From IMG/VR virus record IMGVR_UViG_3300032053_000007: 64,000 nt of DNA; one strand, 5' to 3'. This document shows, piece after piece, positions 804 to 42,714 of the stretch. Made by a program: the position numbers and the translations under genes. Source of the stretch: a virus. Its lineage: Duplodnaviria > Heunggongvirae > Uroviricota > Caudoviricetes. Each line of letters begins with the position of its first letter. Position 1 is the stretch's first letter. The notes under the pieces are model-generated. The model searched no databases. It was not told the DNA's origin and saw nothing but the letters and a program-made list of their open reading frames with translations.

Positions 804-962
804 ATGAGTTTCGAATATGATGGACTTTGGATTCATGCAACCGATAGATATAGTATAGAATGGAAAATGAAGGGCGAAAATCTTATTCCACCAGTTGAGG
901 GATTTCATCATCAATTTATTATTCTGAGACATCTTGGAAAAGAACAGAGACTCGAAAGTTGA
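804..962 (+). CDS. hypothetical small protein (52 aa)
   Basis: ATG 2 nt after previous stop; its TGA is the first 3 nt of the promoter cassette at 960; below track cutoff. Confidence 0.45.
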   Translation: MSFEYDGLWIHATDRYSIEWKMKGENLIPPVEGFHHQFIILRHLGKEQRLES

Positions 963-992
963 GCATGGTCTTTCTAGGGCAAGGTTTATATA
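960..992 (+). promoter_or_regulatory. GAGCATGG-box/TATA promoter cassette
   Basis: tGAGCATGGtctTTCT..TTTATATA; box-to-TATA offset 24; drives 1029 gene. Confidence 0.65.
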
Positions 993-1028
993 GGACGAAT
1001 GCGTGTATATATTCAAGGTAAGAAAAAA

Positions 1029-8956: not shown

Positions 8957-9174
8957 TATGTCCACATTGCAGAAAAGGAGAATTAGTAAATCCCAGACAT
9001 AACGTTCAACTAGATGCCGACCTTTATACTTGTAATGTTTGTCATCGTGGTTGGCATCAGGATAAAAAGAAGAGATGGCACAGTCACTTTGCGGCAGACG
9101 TTGAAGTATATAGTGAAAATGGGCATACTCTAATAGACTGTTCAACTTGGCACATAAATGAGGGAAGAAAATGA
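8953..9174 (+). CDS. zinc-ribbon protein
   Basis: CPHC..CNVC. Confidence 0.6.
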   Translation: MICPHCRKGELVNPRHNVQLDADLYTCNVCHRGWHQDKKKRWHSHFAADVEVYSENGHTLIDCSTWHINEGRK

Positions 9175-9596
9175 ACTGGCTTAAAAAAGCTAAAAAGAGT
9201 CTTAAAGAAAAATATAACCCCGATACACAGATAGATAAATGTGAATTGTGCGTATGTTGCTTCAAGAAATATAGAGAAGAATATGCCGTGGATTTTAACG
9301 ATGTATTTTTGAGGGCTTCTAATCTCGATAGTCGTATTAGTGGGGAATATTCACCTTATTACAACCTTATTAGGTTGAACAAAATGTATTTGAAACGTTT
9401 GTTCCAATTGAAAACCGTTGATGATGTAATTAGCCACGAGTTGGAACATGCATTAATTTATCGAATAATGCGGCGATTTGGTTTTTCAGAAGAAGTAAGC
9501 GATATTGGTTCTCTCTGTGTTTCCAAACCGTCACAATTTGATTTAAAAGATTTACGAGAGAAACTACATAAAAGGAAGCCAAAAAAATATGCCTGA
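9171..9596 (+). CDS. small HExxH metallopeptidase-like protein
   Basis: VISHELEHALIY. Confidence 0.55.
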   Translation: MNWLKKAKKSLKEKYNPDTQIDKCELCVCCFKKYREEYAVDFNDVFLRASNLDSRISGEYSPYYNLIRLNKMYLKRLFQLKTVDDVISHELEHALIYRIMRRFGFSEEVSDIGSLCVSKPSQFDLKDLREKLHKRKPKKYA

Positions 9597-10266
9597 TGAA
9601 GAGAAAAGAAAAGAAATAAGACACCCAAGTTTTGGTGTAATAAATATCTCTAGGGGCGTTTGCTCAGAGAAAATGAATTTGTTTGGAAGCAGTATCCAGC
9701 AGAGAACATTCATCAGAGTAGATATTAGCAAAGCTATTCTTATGAGGGACCTTTACAAAGATTGGATTATGTCGGACCACGGCGTACCGATAGTATCCGT
9801 TTATCTTTCGCCGTCACAGTTTGCAGATGCTATAACATCTTTGAATCAGGGTGAAGGAACCCCATGCACAATACGTTACATGGATGGACATGAAGTAAAA
9901 GAGGCACAATTTGAAAGTAAACGTGTGCAGTTCGATACCGAATTCGAAGATAAGATGAAGGAAGTCGCATCGACTACTAACCAATTTTACACCAAGATTG
10001 CTGGGATACTAGCGAAGCCGAGCATAGGAAAACATGATAGGGAAGAAATTCAAAAGCAACTCGACCAGTTAAAGATGCAGATAGAAAATAATGTTCCTTT
10101 TATAAAAAGACAATTCTCAGAACAGATGGATGAAACTGTAGTCGAAGCAAAGAATGAAGTTACCGCATTCATAGAAGACAAAATAAAGAAGTTGGGCTTA
10201 GAGGGATACAAAAAGGAACTACAGAAATCTTTAGAATTCAAGGAAGAAAAGAAGGAAGAACCATGA
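9589..10266 (+). CDS. hypothetical protein
   Basis: track ORF 225 aa; helical K/E-rich C-terminal half. Confidence 0.6.
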   Translation: MPDEEKRKEIRHPSFGVINISRGVCSEKMNLFGSSIQQRTFIRVDISKAILMRDLYKDWIMSDHGVPIVSVYLSPSQFADAITSLNQGEGTPCTIRYMDGHEVKEAQFESKRVQFDTEFEDKMKEVASTTNQFYTKIAGILAKPSIGKHDREEIQKQLDQLKMQIENNVPFIKRQFSEQMDETVVEAKNEVTAFIEDKIKKLGLEGYKKELQKSLEFKEEKKEEP

Positions 10267-10430
10267 ACTTTAACGAAGCCAGATGGAAAATTCAAGTGGA
10301 CATAATGTTTTTCCTAGATAGAAAAAATATTCCAATGGCTCTTGAAATTAGTCTATGGCTTACAACCCCGATAACTCTTTGGTACTGGATTATAGGAACA
10401 TTCGTCAAATTGGGGATTCTCGATTTATGA
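10263..10430 (+). CDS. small membrane protein (55 aa)
   Basis: ATGA overlap at both ends; W-rich TM segment. Confidence 0.4.
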   Translation: MNFNEARWKIQVDIMFFLDRKNIPMALEISLWLTTPITLWYWIIGTFVKLGILDL

Positions 10431-10615
10431 CCGAGGAAGTTAAACTTCTTAAATGCCCCAAATGTGGTGAATTGCTTATTCGGGTTAATGAAGAGAAGGA
10501 ACGTCAGCGTGTCGATTGCAAATGGATGTGTATTAACCAAGATTGTAGAAAAGGTTTAGAGTTTCCTGTCTATTATGGTTATACACAAAAAGATATTGAC
10601 AATCAGGTGAAATAA
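10427..10615 (+). CDS. zinc-ribbon protein
   Basis: track ORF 10355.. trimmed to ATG 10427; CPKCG..C..C. Confidence 0.5.
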   Translation: MTEEVKLLKCPKCGELLIRVNEEKERQRVDCKWMCINQDCRKGLEFPVYYGYTQKDIDNQVK

Positions 10616-10746
10616 TGGTTGCTATTAAATCTTGTGACCATTGTGGAAACGATGTTCTCGTTCAAGAAGTTCATCTTTACTGGAACGGCACTTCAATGTC
10701 ATGGATATGTGAAGTGTGTTGGAATAAATGTGGTAGTAAAAATTGA
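10615..10746 (+). CDS. zinc-ribbon mini-protein (43 aa)
   Basis: TAATG overlap; CDHCG..CEVCWNKC. Confidence 0.5.
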   Translation: MVAIKSCDHCGNDVLVQEVHLYWNGTSMSWICEVCWNKCGSKN

Positions 10747-10754
10747 ATGAAACA

Positions 10755-10922
10755 ATGAAACAATGGGTTAAGTCGTCTGGTAAAAAATGTAAAAGTTGTA
10801 AAAGAGAATTAACAGAAATCGAAGCGGCATATTGTGAGAATTTGCATACCTGTGCATACTATTGTATTAACTGTCTTTCAAAGAAGTATTATCTAATGCC
10901 AAAATTGCATGAGGACGATTGA
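10755..10922 (+). CDS. Cys-rich mini-protein (55 aa)
   Basis: CKSC..C..C..CINC. Confidence 0.45.
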   Translation: MKQWVKSSGKKCKSCKRELTEIEAAYCENLHTCAYYCINCLSKKYYLMPKLHEDD

Positions 10923-10936
10923 TATGTTCGAAATTT

Positions 10937-10969
10937 TGAGCATGGGCGTTCTACCACAAAGTTTATAAG
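10937..10969 (+). promoter_or_regulatory. GAGCATGG-box/TATA promoter cassette
   Basis: tGAGCATGGgcgTTCT..TTTATAAG; offset 24. Confidence 0.65.
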
Positions 10970-11008
10970 GAATGAATGCGTATTAGTGTGTAGATAGGTG
11001 AAACAGTA

Positions 11009-11404
11009 ATGTTTGAAATCTGGAAAGACCATTTGGCAACTTGTAACATCTTAGAATCTATGACTCCCGAAGGATGGATAATCGTAGATGTTAGAGATAT
11101 AAAGGATGGAACTGGCAACGATATTGAAGCTATAAAAACCAAAATACAAATCATAGCTAACCTTCTTTCTGTCGGGCAAAAAGTTGTAGTTAGATGTTGC
11201 GGCGGAATATCTCGGTCAAATACTATCGCATGTGCCGTAATGGTATTTATGCTTAATATTGACGGCAGAGATTTCGCTTATCATTGGGCAAAAGTTCGAA
11301 AAGCATGTCCACGGGCACTTATAAATATGGGATTCTTTGATGAAGTAAAGAAAGCCTTAGAAGAATTAGGCGTTGAAGAGAAACGGTTATTCTATGATAC
11401 CTAA
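11009..11404 (+). CDS. Cys-based (dual-specificity-type) protein phosphatase
   Basis: C-X5-R signature VVVRCCGGISRSNT. Confidence 0.7.
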   Translation: MFEIWKDHLATCNILESMTPEGWIIVDVRDIKDGTGNDIEAIKTKIQIIANLLSVGQKVVVRCCGGISRSNTIACAVMVFMLNIDGRDFAYHWAKVRKACPRALINMGFFDEVKKALEELGVEEKRLFYDT

Positions 11405-11651
11405 AAAGAAAGTATGGTTAGTCTGGGAATTTCAAATAGTAACTATAGAAACTGCTAAAGTTCAGTTACAGAGTCTTAGAGTTATCGCTGATACGGAAGA
11501 GAAAGGCGTTATCTATAAAGCCATATTTGAAAGAGAGAAACAATGGAAGTTTACTAAAGATGAATTATGGTTTGAACTTGAGGAAAGAGAGGTTAATCAT
11601 ATGTTCGGAATAGAAGACTTGAACAGATATGTGAGTAGAAATAGAATATGA
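11394..11651 (+). CDS. hypothetical protein
   Basis: track ORF 11373.. trimmed to ATG 11394. Confidence 0.5.
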   Translation: MIPKKKVWLVWEFQIVTIETAKVQLQSLRVIADTEEKGVIYKAIFEREKQWKFTKDELWFELEEREVNHMFGIEDLNRYVSRNRI

Positions 11652-12304
11652 ACAAACTTATTTGCTTAATGCCAGTTTACAACTCGGCTGATGTAGTTCT
11701 AGAAGCCTTAAAATCTATAGACGGCAAAGTTGATGAGATATTTTGTCTTGACGGGCGATGGATTGGTACGAGTGGTTTAGACCATTCAACTGATGAAACA
11801 CAGGAAATAATTTTGAATTTTTCTGAACATTCAAAATCTCGTGTTTGTTACACAAGATTACGACCTATGCATCAATGGGAAGCTAGGACAGAATCATTAA
11901 AATTTTGTGGTGATGGAGATTGGGCAATTTTTCTCGACTCAGATGAGATAATAATCATGTGGGGCGATAATGTTCGTAAAACGCTTGAAATATCAAATGA
12001 GAAAGTATATCGTATTTATTGGAAATTTTATAAACCTCATACGGCACTTCTAAGATATGGACTTGTTAAAAAGACAGAAACAATACATTGGTCAACAGAC
12101 CATAGGAGAATATTTGATAAAGATGGTGAATTAGATATAGTACATGCTCCAATAATCAATATTGTATTTGACCATCAAAAAATAGCCGACATAAAGAAGA
12201 TGCGTAAACGAGAGGAAGAATACAAACATTGGCTTCACGAATATGAAACTACACATTGGAATTTAGAAGATGGTCCAGACCCCAATCAAATTGATTTGGG
12301 ATAA
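11648..12304 (+). CDS. glycosyltransferase family 2-like
   Basis: LMPVYNSADVV N-terminus; FLDSDE DxD motif. Confidence 0.6.
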   Translation: MNKLICLMPVYNSADVVLEALKSIDGKVDEIFCLDGRWIGTSGLDHSTDETQEIILNFSEHSKSRVCYTRLRPMHQWEARTESLKFCGDGDWAIFLDSDEIIIMWGDNVRKTLEISNEKVYRIYWKFYKPHTALLRYGLVKKTETIHWSTDHRRIFDKDGELDIVHAPIINIVFDHQKIADIKKMRKREEEYKHWLHEYETTHWNLEDGPDPNQIDLG

Positions 12305-15301: not shown

Positions 15302-15679
15302 ATGTCATTAAAAGATAGAAAACAAAAAAGACAATATATGAAAGATTATTGGATAACTCATCCAGAGAAATATGCGGACCAAAAGAAATCCATGACAAAA
15401 TTTCATAGAAAACAAAGACAATCGTTGAGAGTTGAGATTATTCAACTGCTCGGTAGCAAGTGTTCTAATACAGATTGTCCTATTCCACCTGAAAAGATGG
15501 ATATTAGATGTTTGCAAATAGACCATATAAATGGAAACGGAAATAAAGAACGAAGTCAATTTAGCAATTATAACCAATGGTTGAAATTTATCTTACCAAA
15601 AATACAAGTTGGTTCTAAAGATTATCAACTTCTTTGTGCATATTGTAATTGGATAAAACGTTATACTGAAAAATCCTAG
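15302..15679 (+). CDS. HNH endonuclease
   Basis: CLQIDHINGNGN..LLCAYCNWIK; trimmed to ATG 15302; TATA 15263. Confidence 0.65.
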   Translation: MSLKDRKQKRQYMKDYWITHPEKYADQKKSMTKFHRKQRQSLRVEIIQLLGSKCSNTDCPIPPEKMDIRCLQIDHINGNGNKERSQFSNYNQWLKFILPKIQVGSKDYQLLCAYCNWIKRYTEKS

Positions 15680-15910: not shown

Positions 15911-16153
15911 ATGAGCGACAATCGTAAAACCCCATTCGGAAAACTCAACAGACGAGCAGAGCAAATTGCTGGTGATATTGATACAAAGAAGTTGGAAGAC
16001 GAGATTGGTGAGGCATTAGCAGATGCATGGCAAGCTGGCTATGACGAAGGATGCGGTACAGCACATGATGAGGGTTATCAGGAAGGAAAGGCAGAGGGCA
16101 TAAGGGAAGCCGAAGAGAAGTTTAAAGCCAAAGAGAAAGTGACGTTCACATGA
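15911..16153 (+). CDS. acidic VxFT-tail mini-protein
   Basis: ends EKVTFT, ovl ATGA. Confidence 0.6.
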   Translation: MSDNRKTPFGKLNRRAEQIAGDIDTKKLEDEIGEALADAWQAGYDEGCGTAHDEGYQEGKAEGIREAEEKFKAKEKVTFT

Positions 16154-16287
16154 TGAAGCCACCGAAAGAATGTTTTGTTTGTAGAGGAATTGGTTACGTG
16201 ATAGAAAGAAATCCAGACCCAAAAGGAGATAGATGGATTAGAGTTATGTGTAGAAGATGTAAAGGAGCGGGGTTTCTGAGAGAATGA
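16150..16287 (+). CDS. DnaJ-type CxxCxGxG zinc-finger mini-protein (45 aa)
   Basis: CFVCRGIG and CRRCKGAG; ATGA overlap at both ends. Confidence 0.55.
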   Translation: MMKPPKECFVCRGIGYVIERNPDPKGDRWIRVMCRRCKGAGFLRE

Positions 16288-16502
16288 TTCATTGTGAATG
16301 GAGAGGGTGTTCTAAGAAATCGGAATATGTTATCAATTGGAAAAACGAGCCTAGACCAATAATCATTGAACCTTTTGCGGACCATAACTTTCTTTGTGGA
16401 ACACACTTCAAAAAATTACAGCATGATTTTCCTGAGACAAAACAGAAACCTATAGAAATCTATGAACTTACAGACCCAGTTATAAAGGTGACATTTACTT
16501 GA
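16284..16502 (+). CDS. VxFT-tail mini-protein
   Basis: ends IKVTFT, ovl TTGA. Confidence 0.6.
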   Translation: MIHCEWRGCSKKSEYVINWKNEPRPIIIEPFADHNFLCGTHFKKLQHDFPETKQKPIEIYELTDPVIKVTFT

Positions 16503-16735
16503 ACTTTGACAAAATAAGGGCTGGCGACATTGTAATGTTCGAGCGAGAAGGAAAAATGCTTCATGGCAGAGTGTCAGCTAAAGGTTATCGTTATGTTGTT
16601 AGACCATTTGTGAATACTGATGAGCCAATTCTTTTCATTAGAGTGATTGAACATCCAGAATGGAAGGAAATAACTTTGTCTAGTAAAGAAGTAAAAAATA
16701 TTATCACAATAGGAGAAGTAGTGCATTTCACATGA
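16499..16735 (+). CDS. VxFT-tail mini-protein
   Basis: TTG start; ends EVVHFT. Confidence 0.6.
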   Translation: MNFDKIRAGDIVMFEREGKMLHGRVSAKGYRYVVRPFVNTDEPILFIRVIEHPEWKEITLSSKEVKNIITIGEVVHFT

Positions 16736-16833
16736 ACAGAAAAGATATAGACTATCCTCTCATCTTTAGACGACTTCGCTGGTTTAAACGACTTGCTAAA
16801 GAATATCAGAAAGAAAAGGTGCAGTTCACATGA
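16732..16833 (+). CDS. VxFT-tail mini-protein (33 aa)
   Basis: ends EKVQFT; ovl at both ends. Confidence 0.5.
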   Translation: MNRKDIDYPLIFRRLRWFKRLAKEYQKEKVQFT

Positions 16834-17102
16834 CAATCATACTTAAAAAGAACTTCAAGAAATGTCCTATGTGCGGCTCACGAAATTTAGCCCCTCATCT
16901 TCATAGCCAACATACTGAAAAGGAAGTACCGTGGGTTCGTTGCGAAGATTGTACGGCAATGTTTGTTAGAAGTTGTTCAAGTAATTCCCCAACAGAATCT
17001 ATTGTTATTTGGAATCGTAGAGGAAATGGCACTAAAATTGAGCCTGAAAGCACTAGCGTCTTTGTAACGCCAGAAGACCCAGAGGTTGTGCATTTTACAT
17101 GA
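16830..17102 (+). CDS. Lar-like (restriction-alleviation family) zinc-ribbon protein
   Basis: KCPMCGS..VRCEDC..IVIWNRR pattern; ends EVVHFT. Confidence 0.5.
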   Translation: MTIILKKNFKKCPMCGSRNLAPHLHSQHTEKEVPWVRCEDCTAMFVRSCSSNSPTESIVIWNRRGNGTKIEPESTSVFVTPEDPEVVHFT

Positions 17103-17347
17103 TTGGGTCAACTATTGCTAATATAAGAAAAGACGGACACACTAGATGTGTAGCAATGCATGGTCGGAGTGACCAATGCCCAAAAGAGGCAGAATTCTTA
17201 CTTTACTATAAAATACAAGGAAGAGTTAATGTTGAACCGTTTTGCGAAGATGACGCATATGAATTCTCAATGTATTTCTCGAATTATCTAGGGCTAAAAG
17301 TAATAATCGAAGAGATGAGACTTAAAGAGAGGGTACAATTTACATGA
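17099..17347 (+). CDS. Cys-rich VxFT-tail protein (paralog of 18682)
   Basis: AYEFSMYFSNYLGLKV shared; ends ERVQFT. Confidence 0.6.
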   Translation: MIGSTIANIRKDGHTRCVAMHGRSDQCPKEAEFLLYYKIQGRVNVEPFCEDDAYEFSMYFSNYLGLKVIIEEMRLKERVQFT

Positions 17348-17595
17348 TGAAGAGACCATGTGACAAGTGCAATAATATGTCTGATGCGTTAGTAAGAGTA
17401 CATCCAATTGATAAAAATGGACAAAATTTGGAAACTGTTTATCTTTGCCCAAATTGTCGTGCGGCGTGGGGAAAAGTTTATGATAAGGAAGTAAAGAATG
17501 TTGATTCTATTAAATTCCAAAGTGCGTGGACTAATTCTTGGGAAAACTTTATGAGTGGGAAATATGAAGAACGAGAAGTGGTGCAGTTTACATGA
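17344..17595 (+). CDS. ZR-W family zinc-ribbon mini-protein
   Basis: CDKC..CPNCRAAW; ends EVVQFT. Confidence 0.65.
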   Translation: MMKRPCDKCNNMSDALVRVHPIDKNGQNLETVYLCPNCRAAWGKVYDKEVKNVDSIKFQSAWTNSWENFMSGKYEEREVVQFT

Positions 17596-17774
17596 GTGCT
17601 GAACCAGTTCTTTTAACGCATCCTTCTAAACTGAACGTTAAATGGAGTATTTCGGGATGCACAGTACATAATTCGCTTAACAAAGAATATTGCATAAAAT
17701 CTTGCAGAATAAGAGAACATTGTACGGTTTATGTGTCAATTATGAATGAACGGGAGAAGGTTCAATTCACATGA
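17592..17774 (+). CDS. VxFT-tail mini-protein
   Basis: ends EKVQFT. Confidence 0.55.
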   Translation: MSAEPVLLTHPSKLNVKWSISGCTVHNSLNKEYCIKSCRIREHCTVYVSIMNEREKVQFT

Positions 17775-17998
17775 AACAACTCAAAGTTTTGCATTATGAT
17801 AAAGATTGTGGTTTGGTTCGTTTGACTACGCGAGAACATAGGTCTATACATTCTAATATTTGTTTCGGTTGTGGATATAATGGAGCAATAAAATGGAATT
17901 CTTATAACAAAGTTGTTCAATGTCACAATTGCGGACAGATAATAGCTAAACCAGAAAGTCATCCAGAATTAGAACGAGAGGTAGTGCAATTTACATGA
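17771..17998 (+). CDS. zinc-ribbon VxFT-tail mini-protein
   Basis: CFGCG..CHNCG; ends EVVQFT. Confidence 0.6.
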   Translation: MKQLKVLHYDKDCGLVRLTTREHRSIHSNICFGCGYNGAIKWNSYNKVVQCHNCGQIIAKPESHPELEREVVQFT

Positions 17999-18210
17999 CT
18001 GAACTACTAATTATTGGAATGATAAGTACAATTTGTGGTCTAATTATTGCAATGGTATTAGAGGCAAAAAGACAAAAACGCAAAATGATAAAAAGAGTAA
18101 GAATATATATCAAAGACCGTAATAAAACTTTACGTCTTTCAAAATGGAAAAGAATTGCTACTGAATGGAGAGAAGAATTAAAGAGACCTGTAAAGGTGAA
18201 GTTTACATGA
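17995..18210 (+). CDS. N-terminal-TM VxFT-tail mini-protein
   Basis: hydrophobic N-terminus; ends VKVKFT. Confidence 0.6.
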   Translation: MTELLIIGMISTICGLIIAMVLEAKRQKRKMIKRVRIYIKDRNKTLRLSKWKRIATEWREELKRPVKVKFT

Positions 18211-18560
18211 GCAAATTTTTACGGGCATATCTAGTTCAGGGTAACAAGAAATATGAGGGGATTTCATCAGTCGATATGACAGTAAAAGTGAATGGTGGCG
18301 ACATTTGGGAAATCGAACTTAAAATAGATAACGCACAGAAATTATGTAAAGATTGTGATAATAACAAAATGTTCAGGCTTCATATAGAAAGTACATCAAT
18401 GAAGGATTCAAAACCAATGATTGAAACTACTACAGGGGAAATACTAATAACTGAGATTGAATTTTTATCACAAACTCAATGTCGTGTAAATGGAATCGCA
18501 TCTAATATACGTTGGGCTTCCAGAGAAGGAATCACTAGAGAAAAGGTGCAATTTACGTGA
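18207..18560 (+). CDS. VxFT-tail protein
   Basis: track ORF 18165.. trimmed to junction ATG 18207; ends EKVQFT. Confidence 0.55.
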   Translation: MSKFLRAYLVQGNKKYEGISSVDMTVKVNGGDIWEIELKIDNAQKLCKDCDNNKMFRLHIESTSMKDSKPMIETTTGEILITEIEFLSQTQCRVNGIASNIRWASREGITREKVQFT

Positions 18561-18685
18561 AGTCAAAGTTATTTGATAATTGGGATACAGAAATTCAATA
18601 CAAAGCTAGAGTAATAGATTGGATGCTTGTTGTTGCAATTTGGAGACAGAACAAACACAGAAGGGAAAAGGTGCAGTTTACTTGA
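18557..18685 (+). CDS. VxFT-tail mini-protein (42 aa)
   Basis: GTG in junction ACGTGA; ends EKVQFT. Confidence 0.45.
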   Translation: MKSKLFDNWDTEIQYKARVIDWMLVVAIWRQNKHRREKVQFT

Positions 18686-18930
18686 ATGGTCGTGTTTTAA
18701 CCTGTTGTCTCGCGGTTGATTGTAGAAAAGAATCAGAGATTATTTTGTCATACAAAATGGTGCGAAGCGAAGGGAGCACTCGTGAATTTGCTACAAAAAT
18801 AACACATATATGCCACGATGAATTTTGTGAAGAACATGCTTATGAGTTCGGTATGTATTTTTCAAATTACTTAGGACTAAAAGTAAGAACAAAGAGAATA
18901 AATAGACCAGTAAAGGTGCAGTTTACATGA
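18682..18930 (+). CDS. Cys-rich VxFT-tail protein (paralog of 17099)
   Basis: track ORF 18619.. trimmed to junction TTG; ends VKVQFT. Confidence 0.6.
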   Translation: MNGRVLTCCLAVDCRKESEIILSYKMVRSEGSTREFATKITHICHDEFCEEHAYEFGMYFSNYLGLKVRTKRINRPVKVQFT

Positions 18931-19157
18931 AACGATGGTATCATAAAAAGTGTTGTTATTGCCATTGCAGTTTTATGTGTCACGGAGAATGTGGAATAGA
19001 ACTTAAAGCTAAACAAGAAACTGCTTGCTATTGTGGGGCTTGCATTCAAGAATTTGAGAGAGAGAAGGGTGGCAGAGAAATTGTCTCTGGAAAAGAGCGT
19101 TGTAGAAGTAGAATGGATTTTGGAATTGATGCAAAGGAGAAGGTGGAATTCACATAG
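18927..19157 (+). CDS. Cys-rich VxFT-tail mini-protein
   Basis: ends EKVEFT but stop is TAG (ACATAG), junction start lost. Confidence 0.6.
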   Translation: MKRWYHKKCCYCHCSFMCHGECGIELKAKQETACYCGACIQEFEREKGGREIVSGKERCRSRMDFGIDAKEKVEFT

Positions 19158-19201
19158 CTCTCAATACTTTTGGTTTAAAATTCAACTTCACTAAATGCCC
19201 T

Positions 19202-19405
19202 ATGTGCCATTCACGAAATATAGAAAAGAAAGAAGTATGTATGGAATGTAAAGATTGTCATGCTCAGTTTGTTCGAAGAGTACATCTTTTCGACAAAGAA
19301 TCATTGACGTGTATTTGGAATAGAAAAACAGATGGGACATATTTTGAGCATAGCAACAAAGTTTTTATAGTACCAGAGGACCCAGAGGTAGTGCAGTTCA
19401 CATGA
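19202..19405 (+). CDS. Lar-like zinc-ribbon protein, N-terminally compromised paralog of 16830
   Basis: homology continues upstream (FNFTKCPMC) to ATA 19154; first ATG removes first Cys; ends EVVQFT. Confidence 0.45.
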   Translation: MCHSRNIEKKEVCMECKDCHAQFVRRVHLFDKESLTCIWNRKTDGTYFEHSNKVFIVPEDPEVVQFT

Positions 19406-19692
19406 CTGTTTGGATTTGTCCGTTCTGTAAAAGTGAACTGATATTTACTGGAAAACGAAATGGCATAGGTTGGTTTGGAGATTTAGGCGCGAGTTTCTAT
19501 GCTTGTGAGTGCGGGCACAATATTATTAGCGAGGCATTCAAAAATGAAGATGGGACTCCAAAGATTTTCTATGATAATAAATGGGAACATCTTCTTAATG
19601 ACAAATGGAGATTTTATGATGAAAGGGATATGTGGGGAACGCCTAAAGATGTGCCGAAAGAATTAAAGAGAATAAAGGTGCAGTTTACTTGA
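19402..19692 (+). CDS. zinc-ribbon VxFT-tail protein
   Basis: CPFC..CECG; ends IKVQFT. Confidence 0.6.
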   Translation: MTVWICPFCKSELIFTGKRNGIGWFGDLGASFYACECGHNIISEAFKNEDGTPKIFYDNKWEHLLNDKWRFYDERDMWGTPKDVPKELKRIKVQFT

Positions 19693-19868
19693 CTGAATAT
19701 AAATGTACTTGTTGCACACTTACCAAAGGATGCATATTACGGACTAACAAACATGGAGAAATTTTTTGCACTCATGGTGGTAAAAGTATCAAAATTCCAA
19801 TTGAAAGGGAAATAAAACGTGGGGATTTAAAAGTGATAATACCGAGAGAGGTAGTGCAATTCACATGA
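19689..19868 (+). CDS. Cys-rich VxFT-tail mini-protein (59 aa)
   Basis: TTG junction start; ends EVVQFT. Confidence 0.5.
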   Translation: MTEYKCTCCTLTKGCILRTNKHGEIFCTHGGKSIKIPIEREIKRGDLKVIIPREVVQFT

Positions 19869-20104
19869 GAGCTAATTGGCTTAAAGGTAGAAAATGTGAC
19901 CGTTGTGGAAAAGAATCTGAATTGGTTTTAGGCAAATTTGAACATTTTCTTTGCAGAGAATGTAGTACAGAATGGGGTAATTTTATACAACCATTTCTTT
20001 CCAAACTTCATGATGTAGCGAGAACTCCTAAATGGTCTGAATTATGGGAAAAAATTTACGCCAAGTTTTTGGCTGAATGGATAGAGAAGGTACAATTCAC
20101 TTGA
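19865..20104 (+). CDS. ZR-W family zinc-ribbon mini-protein
   Basis: CDRCGK..CRECSTEW; ends EKVQFT. Confidence 0.65.
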   Translation: MRANWLKGRKCDRCGKESELVLGKFEHFLCRECSTEWGNFIQPFLSKLHDVARTPKWSELWEKIYAKFLAEWIEKVQFT

Positions 20105-20385
20105 CCGAAGAAATAAATCTTGAAAACCTCATTATTAAGGTGCGAAAAAGTACGCCTAAAAATCATAGACGAGCAAAAATTTGGGTTAAAAAAGGTTCGG
20201 CTAAAGTGGAGATTACTGACCAAGAAAAGTGGCTTAATGTAGAAGATATGTGTTGCGTTCTTAATCACGAGTTTCTTCATTGGATAATTACAAATATGAC
20301 AAAAACAAGACCTAAACAATATGACAAATACTTAGAGAGTCTTGGATTGTACTACCACGAAATATTAAGGGAAATATGGCAATAA
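20101..20385 (+). CDS. small HExxH metallopeptidase-like protein
   Basis: track ORF 20077.. trimmed to junction TTG; VLNHEFLHWI. Confidence 0.55.
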   Translation: MTEEINLENLIIKVRKSTPKNHRRAKIWVKKGSAKVEITDQEKWLNVEDMCCVLNHEFLHWIITNMTKTRPKQYDKYLESLGLYYHEILREIWQ

Positions 20386-20564
20386 GGGTAGTGAATAAGA
20401 TACCATTTGAAGAGATAAAGGAACGTGCAAAATGTAAGGAATGTTTAAGGGAAGAATACTGCAAGCGTATTCCAGTAAACGACCTTATCGTTCAGGCAAT
20501 AAAGGAGAATGGCAAGTGCCCAGACTTTATTACAACAGCTTCCCCGCCACCCGCTTCCTTCTGA
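20376..20564 (+). CDS. Cys-rich small protein
   Basis: CKEC..C..C; last gene of array 1. Confidence 0.5.
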   Translation: MAIRVVNKIPFEEIKERAKCKECLREEYCKRIPVNDLIVQAIKENGKCPDFITTASPPPASF

Positions 20565-21459: not shown

Positions 21460-21681
21460 ATGGGAAAAGTTAGAGATACAATGAAGCAGATAGGAATCAG
21501 GAACAGACCGAAAACCAATCTCGATAATGCTCAATGTCTCATTCAATGGGTTGCAAAGAAACACCCAAAAGTCTTAACTGAATATCTTGACTCCGAATTT
21601 TTCAAGATTCTAACGAGAACAAACCAATACGTTAGCGTCATGGAAGCAATGCACTTTCTTGATACAGGGAAGGATGAATAA
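21460..21681 (+). CDS. hypothetical protein
   Basis: track ORF. Confidence 0.55.
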   Translation: MGKVRDTMKQIGIRNRPKTNLDNAQCLIQWVAKKHPKVLTEYLDSEFFKILTRTNQYVSVMEAMHFLDTGKDE

Positions 21682-22337
21682 TGATTGAGGAAAAGAGAAA
21701 GAAAATTATAGTTACAATGGAACGGTTGCAAGACCTTCACCATTTAGCTATTCGACACCCGTTTCGTGTGAGTAGAAAAGGTACAACAGATGAATATTAT
21801 GACGTTCTTGATGAACTCGGTGAAGTTTTTCTAGCGTTAGTAAAGAAGTCTTTCGAGAACTCGGACATACCTTATCCGTGGTATCCGACAGGTAGATGGA
21901 TTTGGTCACACCAATATTGGTCATGCCTTCTTTCTCTCAGAGGGGAGATTGACGCTCAAACACCCGAATACATGGAAACTGTCGAACATTACCTAAATAC
22001 AATTCATCAATTCATGGAAAGAGAAAAACTCGAATCTTTCTATATGCACTCTGGTTATTCAACTTATGACAAGAAACAGCATGAAGAAAATCCCATGCGA
22101 AGTATGTTGTATGTCTATTATCCGAAAAGTAAAAGATGGGATTTGACAAAGTTCTGGGCTGAACGGGAATTGGAATATTGGAAGAAAGAACTAGCCGATG
22201 ATTTGGAACAAGTCAGGAAAGCAAAAAAAGATAAGGGACAATTCGTAAAAGTAAACGTCAACTATTATGAACGAAACACATATTACGATAGAAGAAGAAT
22301 AAAGGAATTGAAGGAGATAATAAATGGTGAAGCATAG
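21681..22337 (+). CDS. hypothetical protein
   Basis: track ORF 218 aa; TAATG overlap with previous. Confidence 0.6.
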   Translation: MIEEKRKKIIVTMERLQDLHHLAIRHPFRVSRKGTTDEYYDVLDELGEVFLALVKKSFENSDIPYPWYPTGRWIWSHQYWSCLLSLRGEIDAQTPEYMETVEHYLNTIHQFMEREKLESFYMHSGYSTYDKKQHEENPMRSMLYVYYPKSKRWDLTKFWAERELEYWKKELADDLEQVRKAKKDKGQFVKVNVNYYERNTYYDRRRIKELKEIINGEA

Positions 22338-22428
22338 ATTCATTCCGCGTCCTTTCATTGAGGACGATGAACGCCCGACTAGACCGATGCCTCACGGGAA
22401 TCCATTCGACTTAGGAGAACTTGATTAA
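22324..22428 (+). CDS. hypothetical mini-protein (34 aa)
   Basis: TAATG overlap with 22428 gene. Confidence 0.35.
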   Translation: MVKHRFIPRPFIEDDERPTRPMPHGNPFDLGELD

Positions 22429-22661
22429 TGCCTAAGAAATTCTACGCGCGTTGTGGTTTGTGCAAGAAAAACTTTGCAACAAAGAGAGGCGTTGATACTC
22501 ATTTTAAAAGTGAAGAACATCTCAGACGACTTGCAAGATGGTATGAACTTTGTACGGAAGGTAAAGAAAAAGGATTCACTTATATTTTAGGAAACATGGA
22601 AGGAAGTGCAAAGGAAGTTCTTGCAGAAGAGGAACGTCCAGAAGTTGTTAGCTTTGACTAA
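22428..22661 (+). CDS. C2H2 zinc-finger protein with VxFD tail
   Basis: C-x2-C-x12-H-x5-H (CGLCKKNF..HFKSEEH); ends EVVSFD. Confidence 0.55.
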   Translation: MPKKFYARCGLCKKNFATKRGVDTHFKSEEHLRRLARWYELCTEGKEKGFTYILGNMEGSAKEVLAEEERPEVVSFD

Positions 22662-22893
22662 AAGAAACTGTGAGAAATGTGGACGAGTTTTCACGGTGAC
22701 AGAAGATAAACTAAAATATCCTCATTCTATAGACGCTATTCTTTGTGGTTCTTGTCTAAGAAAATGGCTAGAGTTTTTTGCTGACCATAATACATTTTTT
22801 GTTGCTAAATATCCTAAGAAAATAAACCCAACTTGGGAAGTATTTAAGGGGAAAATTGCAGACTATACTAGAGAGAAGGTTGTGTTCACTTGA
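22654..22893 (+). CDS. ZR-W family zinc-ribbon mini-protein
   Basis: track ORF 22606.. trimmed to TTG 22654; CEKCG..CGSCLRKW; ends EKVVFT. Confidence 0.6.
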   Translation: MTKRNCEKCGRVFTVTEDKLKYPHSIDAILCGSCLRKWLEFFADHNTFFVAKYPKKINPTWEVFKGKIADYTREKVVFT

Positions 22894-23078
22894 CGACTTG
22901 GCAAATTGTTAAGTGTGACGTTTGCGGACGGTCTTATGAACAATACGGGGACGCTCACGATATTGGTGAACAAAACTTCTGCTGTGAACATTGCCTCTGG
23001 ACAGCAGTTAGTAATAGTGGAGAACCACAACCTAGACATACTTGCATAGAGGTAAAGGAAAAGGTGAACTTTACTTGA
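22890..23078 (+). CDS. zinc-ribbon VxFT-tail mini-protein
   Basis: CDVCG..CCEHC; ends EKVNFT. Confidence 0.6.
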   Translation: MTTWQIVKCDVCGRSYEQYGDAHDIGEQNFCCEHCLWTAVSNSGEPQPRHTCIEVKEKVNFT

Positions 23079-23263
23079 GTGGTTTATCAATTAATCGTGG
23101 TTGCTTCAACTGTAAGAAATACAAAAATTGTCGTGGTTCCATAGATAGTGAAAAAGGAATAGACCCAAAAGAAATTCAGAAAGGTAGAAATAATATACCT
23201 TATCGTGCTGGCTGTTGTTGCCAAAATTACGAGTTTGTCAAAGAAAAGGTGCTGTTCACATGA
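23075..23263 (+). CDS. GCFNC family mini-protein
   Basis: trimmed to junction TTG; RGCFNCKKYKNC..YRAGCCC; ends EKVLFT. Confidence 0.6.
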   Translation: MSGLSINRGCFNCKKYKNCRGSIDSEKGIDPKEIQKGRNNIPYRAGCCCQNYEFVKEKVLFT

Positions 23264-23535
23264 TTTGTGCTAAATGCGGAAAGGAAAACGGAAAAGCCAC
23301 GATGTTTAGGGAAACGGGGACAACCAACATTCTTAAACTAAATCCTGTATTTTATATTGGTGCTGATTGTGGTTGTTTTTGGAAGTGGTTGAAATTTCTT
23401 AAAGAGAAAGACCCAAATATCAAAATTGAAAAGAAAAGATGGGGCGCGTCTATAATATTTTCAAAGGGAATAGGTGAAGCAAACGAATTAGCCAAAGAGT
23501 TCGCGGACGATTTTGTGAAGGTGCAATTCACTTGA
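23260..23535 (+). CDS. zinc-ribbon VxFT-tail protein
   Basis: trimmed to junction ATG; ICAKCGK..CGCFWKW; ends VKVQFT. Confidence 0.6.
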   Translation: MICAKCGKENGKATMFRETGTTNILKLNPVFYIGADCGCFWKWLKFLKEKDPNIKIEKKRWGASIIFSKGIGEANELAKEFADDFVKVQFT

Positions 23536-23735
23536 AATGCCAAATTCCGATGTGCAATAAAGAAGCTGTAAAAGAAGTTCACGTTTACAAAAAGGTGAAC
23601 AGAGTAGAAATAATTTTTCTTTGTGAAGAACATTTTAAACAAGAAAATAAATGGCTCAGATATAAGAATATACAGCGAGAGATTTTCGACTTGAAACCTA
23701 AAGTGGATGATAGAATAAGGGTGCAATTTACTTGA
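23532..23735 (+). CDS. VxFT-tail mini-protein
   Basis: CQIPMC..CEEH; ends IRVQFT. Confidence 0.6.
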   Translation: MKCQIPMCNKEAVKEVHVYKKVNRVEIIFLCEEHFKQENKWLRYKNIQREIFDLKPKVDDRIRVQFT

Positions 23736-23968
23736 AACCGAAAAATAGACAAAACGTAAAATGTCCTAAATGTGGAAACGGATGGAATGAATGGGGATTT
23801 GCTTTTGAGCAAAAAGACATAAAATGGGTTCCGAACGGACATAAATTCTTAATGGGATATAAAGTTGTTGAAGGACACGACCCTTATCCTCTTAAAGTAA
23901 CTTGCAAGAAATGTGGTAAAGTTTTCAGAATAGAGTATGTTGATAAGGAAAAGGTCGAGTTCACTTGA
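23732..23968 (+). CDS. zinc-ribbon VxFT-tail mini-protein
   Basis: CPKCG..CKKCG; ends EKVEFT. Confidence 0.6.
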   Translation: MKPKNRQNVKCPKCGNGWNEWGFAFEQKDIKWVPNGHKFLMGYKVVEGHDPYPLKVTCKKCGKVFRIEYVDKEKVEFT

Positions 23969-24288
23969 CTTACTATTGTCCCTTCTGCAAACAAAAAATG
24001 TTTCATCAACCGAACAACCAAAGCGTAACTCAAGACGAAAAACTGAAAGCCAAAGTTGGAGACACTTTCAAATGTAGTTGCAGTATTTTTCAAGAAGATT
24101 CAGACGGGCAAGTTTACCAACTAAATTCGTGGAAACTTGAAAATGATGGATGGTATCATTTCGGCTCAACAAACGGCAAACCAATTAGAGAACATTTTCA
24201 CATGCACAACGAAAATGAGTGGGTAAAAATTTGTGGCAGAACTAGCGAACCATTTGATACACTTCCAGAGGTTGTGAGTTTTACTTGA
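23965..24288 (+). CDS. zinc-ribbon VxFT-tail protein
   Basis: CPFC..CSC; ends EVVSFT. Confidence 0.6.
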   Translation: MTYYCPFCKQKMFHQPNNQSVTQDEKLKAKVGDTFKCSCSIFQEDSDGQVYQLNSWKLENDGWYHFGSTNGKPIREHFHMHNENEWVKICGRTSEPFDTLPEVVSFT

Positions 24289-24443
24289 GCAAAAGAATCA
24301 CTATGAGTATAGACTACGCTGACATTCAGAAAGCCATAGAAATAATGGAGAAAGACGGGTTCTTGGTTGCTATTAGAGGAGATAAAATGATTGTCATGGG
24401 AAAACCAATAAAGGATACAAAGGAGAAGGTACAGTTTACATGA
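24285..24443 (+). CDS. VxFT-tail mini-protein (52 aa)
   Basis: junction TTG; ends EKVQFT. Confidence 0.5.
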   Translation: MSKRITMSIDYADIQKAIEIMEKDGFLVAIRGDKMIVMGKPIKDTKEKVQFT

Positions 24444-24580
24444 CCGAACTTCCAGAACATAAGTGCAAAGGTTGTCAAATGGATTGTTGGGGCAAAGAAT
24501 GGGACGATGAGAAGAAACAATATTTCTGTATAGCTGACGGATTTTATATTCAACAGAAAGAAAGAGTTGAGTTTACTTGA
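24440..24580 (+). CDS. Cys-rich VxFT-tail mini-protein (46 aa)
   Basis: CKGCQMDC; ends ERVEFT. Confidence 0.5.
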   Translation: MTELPEHKCKGCQMDCWGKEWDDEKKQYFCIADGFYIQQKERVEFT

Positions 24581-24870
24581 CAGACCTGAAAATTTGTTCT
24601 GTTTGTAATGAGGAAAAGACATGCCATTCTATTGCCCCATATACTATATGTAAAGATTGTTTTTCAAAATGGACACACTTTCTTGACAAAGGAAGTAGAA
24701 TACAAAGATTAAATGATGCTCGTAAAAATTATAACAATAGTGCAAAATTTGGAAATGATAACGATGAGGGTGAAAAAGCGTGGAAAGAATTCAGCGAAAT
24801 TTGGAACAAATATTTTGAAGAGTTTTTGAAAAACATAGAAACCAGAAAAGAGAAGGTTGCATTTACATGA
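24577..24870 (+). CDS. ZR-W family zinc-ribbon mini-protein
   Basis: CSVC..CKDCFSKW; ends EKVAFT. Confidence 0.65.
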   Translation: MTDLKICSVCNEEKTCHSIAPYTICKDCFSKWTHFLDKGSRIQRLNDARKNYNNSAKFGNDNDEGEKAWKEFSEIWNKYFEEFLKNIETRKEKVAFT

Positions 24871-25013
24871 ATGCCAAAATCACTATGGCTTATACAGGAT
24901 TAACGTGTGACGGATGCGGAAGAAAACAGATTGTGGTAGTTCTTAAAGGAAGAAAGTGGCTTTGTTATGACTGTATGCACAAAATGGACGTGGAGAAAGT
25001 AACCTTTACTTGA
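24867..25013 (+). CDS. zinc-ribbon VxFT-tail mini-protein (48 aa)
   Basis: CDGCG..CYDC; ends EKVTFT; TGA opens cassette 25011. Confidence 0.55.
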   Translation: MNAKITMAYTGLTCDGCGRKQIVVVLKGRKWLCYDCMHKMDVEKVTFT

Positions 25014-25043: not shown

Positions 25044-25369
25044 GTAGTTTGCACATACTACTTCTCAGCTATGGGTGATAGCATGGAAAACTACACCACA
25101 ACGAATCGTCTGAATGCTAGAATAGGACTTGAAACAACGATTACTGTTTCCATTATATATATTTAATGAATTGGTATATAGAATTAAAATGCGTGTAGAA
25201 AGAAACACGTACTTCTAGCCTAATCGTGCCCGTCCCGTTCAAGTGGACGAAGCGAAACCCCCTAACGGCTGTTCCGTTTTGGATGTTTCATTTTCAATTT
25301 TTCTACGTTAGTTTTTTTTCGAATGCTCAAAATTTTGCGCGAGCGCGACTCACCCGATTTTTCGAATTT

Positions 25370-25385
25370 TTAATCAGTTGATTAA
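25370..25385. promoter_or_regulatory. TTAATCA-NN-TGATTAA palindrome
   Basis: ttaatcagttgattaa. Confidence 0.55.
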
Positions 25386-25420
25386 TTATCCTATATTGTC
25401 CATGCAATATACGACCACGG

Positions 25421-25436
25421 TTAATCACCTGATTAA
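25421..25436. promoter_or_regulatory. TTAATCA-NN-TGATTAA palindrome
   Basis: ttaatcacctgattaa. Confidence 0.55.
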
Positions 25437-25439
25437 AAT

Positions 25440-25762
25440 TCTAAAATATAATTTTAATATTTTTTATATCTATGTCCTTTTGTCAAACGGGGCATTCTTA
25501 TGGCTTCTCTGGGCAATCGGATAGTTATTTTAATCCATAAAATCCTAAATAATTATATTTTCTTTTCGAAAATTGTTCGAATAGTCTATGGTAAAAGTAT
25601 GGACTTTTTGATGTTTCGAACTAACTCCGAAATCTATCAAGGATTATATTTAGGATTTATGGAATAGTTTATAACCTATGGGAAAAGACCATGAAAAATT
25701 ATATAACAGTCCCATTAAATCTTAAATTTAATTCATATACTTTTTCGAACTAACTTCGAAAC
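25440..25762. other. AT-rich noncoding block with inverted and direct repeats (origin-like)
   Basis: IR arms 25534-25558 / 25643-25663; tttcgaactaacYYcgaaa at 25614 and 25743. Confidence 0.35.
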
Positions 25763-25795
25763 TGAGCATGGCAATTCTTAGGGAAAGTTTATAAG
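25763..25795 (+). promoter_or_regulatory. GAGCATGG-box/TATA promoter cassette
   Basis: tGAGCATGGcaaTTCT..TTTATAAG; offset 24. Confidence 0.65.
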
Positions 25796-29408: not shown

Positions 29409-29409
29409 A

Positions 29410-42651: not shown

Positions 42652-42684
42652 CGAGCATGGTCGTTCTGGGGAAACCTTTATAAG
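42652..42684 (+). promoter_or_regulatory. GAGCATGG-box/TATA promoter cassette
   Basis: cGAGCATGGtcgTTCT..TTTATAAG; offset 24; leader cgctggcatctata shared with 44919 cassette. Confidence 0.65.
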
Positions 42685-42714
42685 CTACGCTGGCATCTAT
42701 AAAGGTGTGGAAAA

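Follow-up and report, generated by a model that had tools for sequence, protein, structure and literature searches.

What is known of transcriptional control in archaeal viruses comes from a few small viruses of Sulfolobales and haloarchaea, and concerns mostly repressors. In other domains, the early, middle and late promoters of bacteriophage T4 and the early motif of mimivirus (AAAATTGA) represent temporal promoter classes. Multi-copy, virus-specific promoter cassettes are thus far described from SIRV2 and other Sulfolobales viruses, from HF2, and, in other domains, from T4 and mimivirus. Here we report such a cassette from a 64,000-nucleotide (nt) stretch of viral DNA (IMG/VR record IMGVR_UViG_3300032053_000007, Caudoviricetes), the whole of which is referred to as the window. 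The element, present 31 times, joins an archaeal-type core promoter to an asymmetric box of 15 bp, TGAGCATGG-N3-TTCT, which always precedes the TATA box by 24 bp. With moderate confidence, we interpret it as the dominant promoter class (class I) of a large archaeal double-stranded DNA virus, the box being the site of a class-specific regulator. New here are the scale of 31 copies, the separate upstream box with its unvarying distance from the TATA box, the sharing of one core by at least one more promoter class and probably by two, and the lineage, a very large, almost wholly unannotated virus family, probably of Bathyarchaeia.

Like T4 and mimivirus, this virus has several promoter classes in one genome, with motifs repeated tens of times and the commonest class heading clusters of small genes of unknown function. 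In those viruses the classes depend on sigma-factor remodelling or a viral RNA polymerase, whereas the present motif has an archaeal TATA box and B recognition element (BRE), predicted to be read by the host TATA-binding protein (TBP) and transcription factor B (TFB). The early-gene regulatory sequences of SIRV2 and other Sulfolobales viruses (Bhoobalan-Chitty et al., 2024; PMC11065993) resemble the cassette in that many copies per genome of a conserved sequence surround a strong BRE and TTTAWATA core, precede small orphan genes with unrelated coding sequences, and have virus-specific flanking parts thought to bind a virus-encoded regulator. Unlike these, the conserved flank in the window is a separate, asymmetric box that lies entirely ahead of the BRE, with a rigid offset of 24 bp. 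The 31 copies fall within 56 kb, many of them in front of long polycistronic arrays and not of single genes, and the host lineage is a different, uncultivated one.

The halovirus HF2, another large archaeal virus, carries promoters in 58-bp intergenic repeats, there also termed class I (Russ, Pfeiffer & Dyall-Smith, 2021; PMC8707807). These have conserved blocks ahead of, at and behind the TATA box (alpha, beta and gamma, respectively), their positions are kept among related viruses, and a second repeat class occurs in the same genome, all of which has a counterpart here. HF2 has seven copies against 31 in the window, however, and the sequences are unrelated. A site directly upstream of the BRE is also bound by the cellular regulators Ptr2 (Methanocaldococcus), TFB-RF1 (Pyrococcus) and EarA (Methanococcus and Pyrococcus), which recruit TBP or TFB from a fixed register (PMC5569661, PMC5937170, PMC5512572). 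They serve weak BRE or TATA elements at one or a few cellular operons, whereas the core in the window is strong and its element is viral and present in dozens of copies.

A preliminary description of the window had listed 29 plus-strand and two minus-strand copies. The motif held at every listed position, and a position weight matrix (PWM) made from the copies themselves and scanned on both strands returned the identical set, with none missed or added. The 31 sites scored 32.9–56.4 bits, no other site in the window exceeded 8 bits, and the best score over 20 shuffles was 4.2 bits. The coordinates first given for the copies mark the T preceding GAGCATGG, one base ahead of the box G. The class I copies are listed below with the positions of the TATA box and of the start codon or genes downstream (open reading frames, ORFs; protein lengths in amino acids, aa), and with the PWM score.

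960..997, plus strand: TGAGCATGG-N3-TTCT-N9-TTTATATA-GGACG; TATA 985; ATG 1029 (+44); upstream TGA at -25; 56.4 bits
3076..3113, plus strand: TATA 3101; ATG 3142; the TGA in the box is the stop of a 311-aa glycosyltransferase gene; 47.1 bits
5134..5171, plus strand: TATA 5159; ATG 5205; 51.1 bits
6517..6554, plus strand: TATA 6542; ATG 6585; operon with an RNA ligase-like gene (Pfam RNA_ligase); 45.9 bits
10937..10974, plus strand: TATA 10962; ATG 11009; 43.4 bits
15846..15883, plus strand: TATA 15871; heads about 24 tiny genes at 15911-20564; 50.4 bits
21393..21430, plus strand: TATA 21418; heads the genes at 21460-25013; 44.6 bits
25011..25048, plus strand: TATA 25036; no convincing ORF for about 750 nt; 44.8 bits
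25763..25800, plus strand: TATA 25788; ATG 25828; 43.5 bits
26431..26468, plus strand: TATA 26456; ATG 26499; operon with a KaiC-like ATPase (Pfam); 50.0 bits
28961..28998, plus strand: TATA 28986; ATG 29029; 49.1 bits
31483..31520, plus strand: TATA 31508; ATG 31554, SPFH protein (Pfam Band_7); 52.1 bits
32469..32506, plus strand: the weakest copy, with a GTATATGG box; TATA 32494; ATG 32538; 32.9 bits
33507..33544, plus strand: TATA 33532; ATG 33563 (31 nt, leaderless-like); 46.0 bits
33851..33888, plus strand: TATA 33876; heads the genes at 33917-37047; 44.3 bits
37045..37082, plus strand: TATA 37070; ATG 37109; 52.4 bits
38011..38048, plus strand: GAGTACGTT variant; TATA 38036; heads the tiny-gene array at 38077-41624; 36.9 bits
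42062..42099, minus strand: first T of TATA 42074; ATG 42031 (43-aa ORF); 37.6 bits
42652..42689, plus strand: TATA 42677; ATG 42715 (575-aa vWA protein); palindrome TTAAACAGTTGATTAA 47 nt upstream of TATA; 52.5 bits
44919..44956, plus strand: TATA 44944; ATG 44986 (MoxR-type AAA ATPase); orthologous promoter in the related loci L028, L033 and L031; 51.3 bits
47303..47340, plus strand: TATA 47328; ATG 47370 (conserved 229-aa protein); palindromes at -47 and +25; 46.6 bits
49235..49272, plus strand: TATA 49260; first ORF only at 49465; 44.5 bits
52324..52361, plus strand: TATA 52349; ATG 52399; 50.8 bits
52784..52821, plus strand: TATA 52809; ATG 52839 (30 nt) or a structured RNA; 36.1 bits
53090..53127, plus strand: TATA 53115; no ORF; predicted transcript 53143-53262 with a closed fold; 48.5 bits
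53266..53303, plus strand: TATA 53291; no good ORF; predicted transcript 53319-53436; 47.0 bits
53437..53474, plus strand: GAGCACGTT variant; TATA 53462; ATG 53504; 50.3 bits
54449..54486, plus strand: TATA 54474; no ORF within 90 nt; fold z -2.3; 42.2 bits
54744..54781, plus strand: TATA 54769; ATG 54810; 55.9 bits
55032..55069, plus strand: TATA 55057; no ORF; fold z -3.3; 44.6 bits
56188..56225, minus strand: first T of TATA 56200; boundary with the class II promoter region; 48.0 bits

The bipartite string first proposed describes these copies well as a consensus; as an exact string it occurs in five of them only, with none expected. Numbering from the first T of the TATA box as 0, the first half of the box is T-26 (24 of the 31 copies), T-25 (24), G-24 (29), A-23 (28) and G-22 (26), followed by C-21 (21), A-20 (31), T-19 (29), G-18 (31) and G-17 (29). 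After three free positions come T-13 and T-12 (31/31 each), C-11 (27/31) and T-10 (29/31). Five near-free positions, except for G or C at -7 (30/31), separate this TTCT from A-4 (30/31) and A-3 (31/31), and two more free positions precede the TATA box, which begins with TTTA at 0 to 3 in 31/31 copies and continues (T)A(T/A)(A/G); nearly all copies read TTTATAWA or TTTATAAG. The GGACG noted earlier as frequent after the TATA box lies directly downstream of it in 12/31 copies, and ACG in 16/31. Altogether the conserved blocks extend over about 45 bp.

The claim of an invariant 24-bp offset between the box G and the first T of the TATA box is borne out by all 31 copies, which align without gaps. 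It was also examined independently of the PWM, by taking every distinct GAGCATG in the window and related contigs with a TTTAWA inside 8–60 nt: TTTAWA lay at exactly +24 in 70 of 70 distinct instances, and TTCT at +11 in 65 of them. The offset is therefore no artefact of ungapped scanning. Comparison of the window with itself by BLAST revealed no long repeats besides the promoter copies, which indicates that the element is not mobile with conserved flanks.

The core downstream of the box has a BRE (A at -4 and -3, G or C at -7) and TTTATAWA, often followed by (G)GACG; the sequence leading up to the predicted start site is AT-rich. Together with the co-orientation of the genes and the distance to their start codons, this core upholds the earlier identification of an archaeal-type promoter cassette. 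A at -3 and G at -6 favour TFB binding, according to a rule quoted in PMC11065993; A-3 is present in 145/145 distinct instances family-wide and G-6 in only 12/31 copies of the window. The upstream box had been thought too distant from the TATA box to be a BRE, and its placement agrees: it spans -25 to -10, the BRE -7 to -1, and the two do not overlap.

Start codons had been said to fall, with leaders or without, where an archaeal start site would predict. A start codon indeed lies 30–50 nt past the first T of the TATA box in 25/31 copies (mode 41–43), and before most of these stands a ribosome-binding site (RBS; GGTGA, GTGAT or AAGGT), mostly 6–10 nt upstream. Leaderless messages would be expected from just two copies, with starts at 30 and 31 nt, so that part of the claim does not hold generally; judging from the sequence, most transcripts would have a short leader with an RBS. 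About six copies have no plausible ORF downstream. The copies are intergenic throughout and co-oriented with the genes, nearly all of which are on the plus strand up to about 56 kb. The window has a G+C content of 37% and about 213 mostly tiny ORFs in the standard code; an alternative genetic code, prompted by the short ORFs, was rejected, as the standard code gave the most strand-asymmetric ORF set.

Arrays of tiny, translationally coupled genes headed by class I copies are found at 15911-20564, 21460-25013, 33917-37047 and 38077-41624, and the 31 promoters would define roughly 25 transcription units over 55 kb. Among the ORFs scanned against Pfam and PHROGs, the downstream genes are mostly unrelated orphans. 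In relatives with 59–68% identity in the vWA protein, the promoters are kept at orthologous sites before the vWA, MoxR and 229-aa genes; that of the vWA gene (copy 42652..42689) is found at the orthologous position in both L028 and L033.

Three observations set the box apart as an element in its own right. Firstly, it is tied to the TATA box: a half-matrix scan found no box without one, while about 45 further BRE/TATA cores lack the class I box. Secondly, in a set of 145 distinct instances drawn from many metagenomes, the information content is about 0 bits in the N3 and N5 spacers and the blocks are nearly invariant, which points to base-specific selection on the box and not to recent copying. 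At the level of sequence, both the promoter class and the selection on its box are thus evident. Thirdly, the box varies between lineages at a constant TATA box. It reads GAGCATGG-N3-TTCT in the window; GAGCATGTT-N2-TTCT in L028 (68% vWA identity); (A/T)(G/C)CAT followed by a T-run in L033 (59%); and aACGCTCTATGGcAG, also given as CTCTATGGCAG, in L031 (42%). The variant promoters sit at orthologous positions among these related viruses, and the box appears from such alignments to co-evolve with the virus lineage.

Other promoters of the same genome carry a different box in the same place. Class II comprises ten cores at 56.6–63.1 kb, on both strands, where 0.21 would be expected; its dyad-symmetric box is TGTAG-N7-CTACA..TTaAA, also written tGTAg-N-cTGTTCTACAcTTaAA. 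This class is confined to the region where the GC skew flips and genes run in both directions. The class II promoters lie within 56666-63102, with the first T of their TATA boxes at:

56671, minus strand
56749, plus strand
59546, minus strand
59905, minus strand
59983, plus strand
61428, minus strand
62053, plus strand
62269, plus strand
62585, plus strand
63097, plus strand

Beyond the window, four cores of the type aACCGCAAcc-TTTAWATA followed by cagTTcCCC..TTTT are, on their sequence, probably a third class. They lie upstream of the dCMP deaminase and ribonucleotide reductase region and differ mainly at the BRE and downstream of the TATA box. These candidate class III promoters are:

L003 14152, window-equivalent 65675
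L003 14552, window-equivalent 66075
L003 14968, window-equivalent 66491
L003 18785, window-equivalent 70308

The ACG after the TATA box is common to classes I and II and is thus part of the common core. It recalls the GTC element downstream of TATA in SIRV1 and SIRV2 (Kessler et al., 2004), which, as far as its citation in PMC5569661 describes it, is likewise a short virus-specific element right after the TATA box, although of different sequence; (G)GACG stands here at +8 to +12 in classes I and II. As it is not class-specific, it looks like common core rather than a class signal.

In the class II region, AAGGACGTG was also seen 5–8 nt before start codons (56780, 57329, 57697, 58898 and 61510, within 56.7–62 kb), directly after a conserved TGcTATTATACTcTT stretch. 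It resembles the RBS AGGAGGTGA but always has a C in the middle, and its GGACG is the same as that after the TATA box of many class I promoters.

The box could also be an extended core element, comparable to a bacterial UP element, that contacts TFB, TBP, RNA polymerase or TFE or shapes the DNA and has no dedicated factor. Rigid spacing would suit a box that touches the pre-initiation complex directly, the scanned ORFs of the window and its relatives yielded no regulator gene, and the single copies seen in cellular contigs could be used there by host factors alone. However, the box varies among close viruses while BRE and TATA stay constant, for which the general factors are too conserved; other promoter classes of the same genome have different boxes at the same position; and the motif is not common in host genomes. 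We therefore consider this reading improbable.

The window belongs to metagenome contigs of 86 and 152 kb in ENA, and the virus is thus at least 152 kb long. Its flanks encode glycosyltransferases, sugar-nucleotide enzymes, a class II ribonucleotide reductase (RNR), dCMP deaminase and HNH nucleases. Megablast detected no DNA-level similarity to sequenced phages, and tblastn against known phages no match for the KaiC-like ATPase or a 285-aa ATPase; matches of MoxR and RNR were scattered over bacterial and haloarchaeal viruses and hence say little about the host. In IMG/VR, the motif pattern gave one chance match and the vWA protein no relatives. The 575-aa vWA protein has 77 homologues (31–95% identity) on metagenomic contigs of up to 147 kb from peat and freshwater sediment, which indicates a whole family of large viruses. 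A search with one pattern yielded about 60 metagenomic loci with true motif copies, and L028 has about 19.

Evidence for an archaeal host comes from these relatives. L028, L029, L058 and L079 represent a virus that shares synteny with the window, with 60–84% protein identity and the same promoters. The best solved relative, by far, of its family B DNA polymerase (PolB) is PolB1 of Saccharolobus solfataricus (1S5J; E = 3e-83, the next at 1e-26), and no phage PolB was among the 60 best matches listed. An endonuclease related to Hjc, the archaeal Holliday-junction resolvase, is also encoded in the family. No tRNAs were found in 50 motif-bearing metagenomic loci. L032, which shares three genes and the family palindrome (see below) with the window, has at least 11 tRNA genes at 9145-11807, with TATA boxes between them and CCA encoded. 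Its tRNA-Tyr has a C1-G72 pair and a short variable arm (class I), features that are archaeal or eukaryal, the bacterial tRNA-Tyr having a long arm and G1-C72. Several of the L032 tRNAs contain introns of 25–130 nt, some at non-canonical positions. A eukaryotic virus is argued against by the RBSs and the ATGA start/stop overlaps.

A motif scan of 185,579 genomes, one per species, returned 16 single matches, which is the chance expectation. One of these fits the whole motif (43.8 bits, 72% identity over 93 nt to copy 1); it lies on a contig of a Bathyarchaeia metagenome-assembled genome, adjoining thiolase and HMG-CoA synthase genes, and the contig is 159 kb long in a JGI metagenome. Since all genome matches except this locus are at chance level, a host regulon or general host element was rejected as the origin of the motif. 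Taken together, the sequences make an archaeon of Bathyarchaeia or another TACK lineage the most likely host.

The element could also be read as a bacteriophage promoter. TG at +14/+15 and T at +19 after the TATA box are moderately conserved, and a TG-N-TAnnnT 14–22 nt past TATA could be read as an extended -10, with TTTATA and the box bound by a phage activator in place of a -35, in the manner of MotA at T4 middle promoters. The same transcription start would be predicted, and homologues of MoxR, class II RNR and SPFH occur in bacteriophages too. However, conservation in the -10-like stretch does not exceed 1 bit per position, where TATA reaches about 1.9, there is no -35 at 17 bp, and the TG-to-T distance varies. 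The archaeal-type tRNA-Tyr, intron-bearing tRNAs, crenarchaeal-type PolB1 and Hjc-related endonuclease of the family, and the motif in a Bathyarchaeia chromosome, also speak against it. A bacterial sigma-70 or extended -10 promoter was accordingly rejected, as the -10 is not the best-conserved element and a -35 is missing, and we regard the bacteriophage reading as exceedingly improbable.

The box never occurs alone, its bases are under selection, it is specific to one promoter class, it co-evolves with the virus lineage and it is not a general host element; a dedicated regulator site is the best explanation of these features combined. Of the earlier proposal that the box serves a dedicated activator or an element-specific factor, the second part is supported, as the box is TATA-tied, lineage-variable and class-specific, while an activator is not established, a repressor that shuts off early genes being about equally probable. 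In the mechanism we propose, host TBP, TFB and RNA polymerase would initiate about 29–31 nt past the first T of the TATA box, giving transcripts with 8–15-nt leaders and GGTGA-type RBSs, many of them polycistronic with up to about 24 tiny translationally coupled genes. A class-specific DNA-binding regulator would dock at the box, make contact with the TFB/TBP complex at a set distance and distinguish the roughly 25 class I units from promoter classes sharing the core but having other flanking elements. In its asymmetry, its rigid spacing and its place right before the BRE, the box resembles the sites of the activators Ptr2, TFB-RF1 and EarA. We infer the binding of this factor, the direction of its control and the timing of the class: the regulator is probably virus-encoded, class I is probably early, and we lean slightly towards positive control, through recruitment or stabilisation of TFB/TBP, over shut-off by a repressor.

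Several points weigh against this proposal. No TFIIB, TBP, helix-turn-helix or ribbon-helix-helix protein was found with Pfam and PHROGs among the larger ORFs of the window (from 55 aa upwards for the most part, excluding tiny array genes beyond 29.8 kb) or, among the matches listed for 25 of 58 families, in 150 ORFs of related loci; the only hint of a regulator is a 63-aa protein (29395-29586) with a faint match to the TFIIB-type zinc ribbon (E = 0.003). ARAGORN found no tRNA genes in the window, and the evidence that the window is archaeal is indirect, coming from relatives and from a single copy in a host genome. When the block upstream of the BRE in HF2 was mutated, reporter activity was unchanged (PMC8707807); that block is thus dispensable in a reporter assay. 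Finally, the archaeal activators characterised so far have targets whose BRE or TATA is weak, in the case of TFB-RF1 a weak BRE (PMC5937170), and the class I core, being near consensus, does not resemble such targets. A strong core argues against a need for activation and favours a repressor.

The box may accordingly be the operator of a virus-encoded repressor, in which case class I would be a strong early promoter, driven by host factors alone until the repressor silences it, as has been proposed for the early and anti-defence genes of SIRV2 and the winged helix-turn-helix protein Aca8. A near-consensus BRE/TATA core should need no activator, class I drives mostly tiny orphan genes in one orientation, as is typical of early and anti-defence sets, and the nearest viral precedent lies in the conserved sequences around a strong core before early and anti-defence genes of SIRV2 and other archaeal viruses, thought to be bound and shut off by Aca8 (PMC11065993). 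Yet the box lies wholly upstream of the BRE and overlaps neither BRE/TATA nor the start site, the usual targets of archaeal repressors; it is asymmetric, most repressor operators being dyads; and the palindrome TTAATCA-NN-TGATTAA, which covers the predicted start site in three promoters, looks more operator-like. Repression through the box is a possibility to be taken seriously, albeit less probable than our main reading.

A dedicated class-specific regulator could also be part of a larger scheme, a promoter-class cascade on a TBP/TFB core analogous to those of phage sigma factors and MotA. Interchangeable boxes, each with a virus-encoded factor (a TFB/TBP partner or a TFB-like protein), would set the temporal classes, and the cellular copies would be infection-responsive switches. 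We put this forward as a speculative and rather doubtful extension.

Single class I copies were also observed in cellular-looking contigs, each before an orphan or defence-type gene in an apparent defence island:

L096 3043-4520: 475-aa GHKL-ATPase-like gene beside Dcm and Vsr
L086 10808-11200: 104-aa ORF between a methyltransferase-Mrr fusion and a NERD gene
L020 4239-4954 (= L038): 209-244-aa protein
L142 2724-3500: 209-244-aa protein
L146 1355-2050: 209-244-aa protein

The gene of the L142 copy lies beside GmrSD, and the L020 contig is a Bathyarchaeia chromosome. These copies could be infection-responsive switches, or captured viral genes answering a viral factor.

With its defined sequence, the element gives access to gene regulation in a much larger virus (at least 152 kb) whose lineage is uncultivated and very abundant in sediment and peat; here one core promoter is combined with alternative upstream boxes, two or more in number, that occupy the same place. 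If a factor does bind the box, nature would provide here a clear example of switching between promoter classes on the archaeal, eukaryote-like transcription machinery, and the invariant 24-bp spacing makes the box directly testable in vitro. Furthermore, the motif can be used to recognise members of the virus family in metagenomes, it delimits transcription units in a genome with more than 90% unannotated genes, and, if SIRV2 is a guide, it points to genes that are candidates for early or anti-defence functions.

The junctions between units were examined in view of the earlier suggestion that one element ends an operon and starts the next. The count of about ten copies completing the preceding stop codon was accurate: the stop of the upstream ORF lies at -25 in ten copies (nine with the TGA of TGAGCATGG, one with TAA), and some stop codon falls inside the motif in 16/31. 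Transcription termination is another matter. Oligo-T runs are the archaeal termination signal, and they occur upstream of 6/31 copies against 9.6% of random windows; there is no meaningful oligo-T enrichment upstream of the 31 copies, and the motif has no hairpin. The suggestion therefore reduces to the overlap of stop codons, which is a matter of genome compaction, and read-through is likely.

The same data bear on whether the repeat is a recombination or cassette-boundary element, like the promoter-stem-loops of T4-type phages, or an upstream terminator, its promoter role being secondary. Blocks of variable small genes are bordered by the motif, relatives differ in the genes they carry from one conserved promoter to the next, and the stop codons within the motif would also fit. 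The fully degenerate spacers, however, imply that the copies are not homogenised by recombination, there are no flanking repeats or hairpins, oligo-T is as infrequent as stated, and strict orientation and a fixed start-codon distance point to transcription. Such a role is very unlikely.

The palindrome TTAATCA-NN-TGATTAA has 24 perfect copies in the window, where about one is expected:

Palindrome, for example at 5097, 20979, 21312, 25370, 33389, 42165, 44897, 47281, 47353, 49285, 52306, 52371, 55814 and 58831

It lies 43–47 nt upstream of TATA in four class I promoters and 22–25 nt downstream of it, over the predicted start site and RBS, in three others. It is the most abundant repeat in the relatives L033 and L034, often within a T-run/A-run. 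From its sequence and placement it could bind a dimeric regulator as an operator, terminate transcription in both directions or form an RNA hairpin that masks the RBS, and it may thus be a terminator or operator element of these junctions.

Tiny-gene arrays were delimited at 16150-20385, 22645-25013, 35184-37047, 38340-41624, 48800-49266 and 49659-51907. The encoded proteins, about 40–110 aa long, often contain CxxC zinc-finger pairs but are unrelated in other respects. Almost every gene ends in (K/R)-E-(K/V)-V-x-F-T followed by ATGA or TTGA, the stop overlapping the next start. Because third codon positions vary synonymously, this C-terminal tail seems to be selected as protein, besides its role as a GGTG RBS. 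Relatives have their own versions of the tail, AGAGAAGGTnnTGTTAACATGA in L033 and AAGGTTAAGGTGATnCTnnTTTGA in L034.

A cluster of promoters without ORFs occupies 52837-55400 (with a similar stretch at 25064-25780), and its predicted transcripts fold better than shuffles, with z values of -2.1 for 53143-53262, which has a closing stem, -3.4 for 53319-53436, -2.3 for 54502-54650 and -3.3 for 55085-55234. Rfam recognised no RNA family in the window. On the basis of these folding models, the ORF-less class I transcripts may be virus-encoded small RNAs.

In the bidirectional region at 56–64 kb, tandem TATA-like boxes occur at 59431-59480 and 62687-62721 (ccgaaacgTTTATATActaccctataccgaaaccCTTATATA; two TTTATAAG 27 nt apart), which could mark a complex regulatory or origin region. 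Lastly, small HNH-type endonuclease genes are present at 15302-15679, 46947-47300 and 51949-52275. No other genes of the family are scattered as widely: up to 15 loci are related, and homologues occur four times in L028, in L031 and at numerous metagenomic loci. The vWA homologues P0005, P0011, P0018-P0020 and P0059 are about 900 aa long, and three have intein/LAGLIDADG domains on record. Selfish nucleases thus appear to be common in these genomes.

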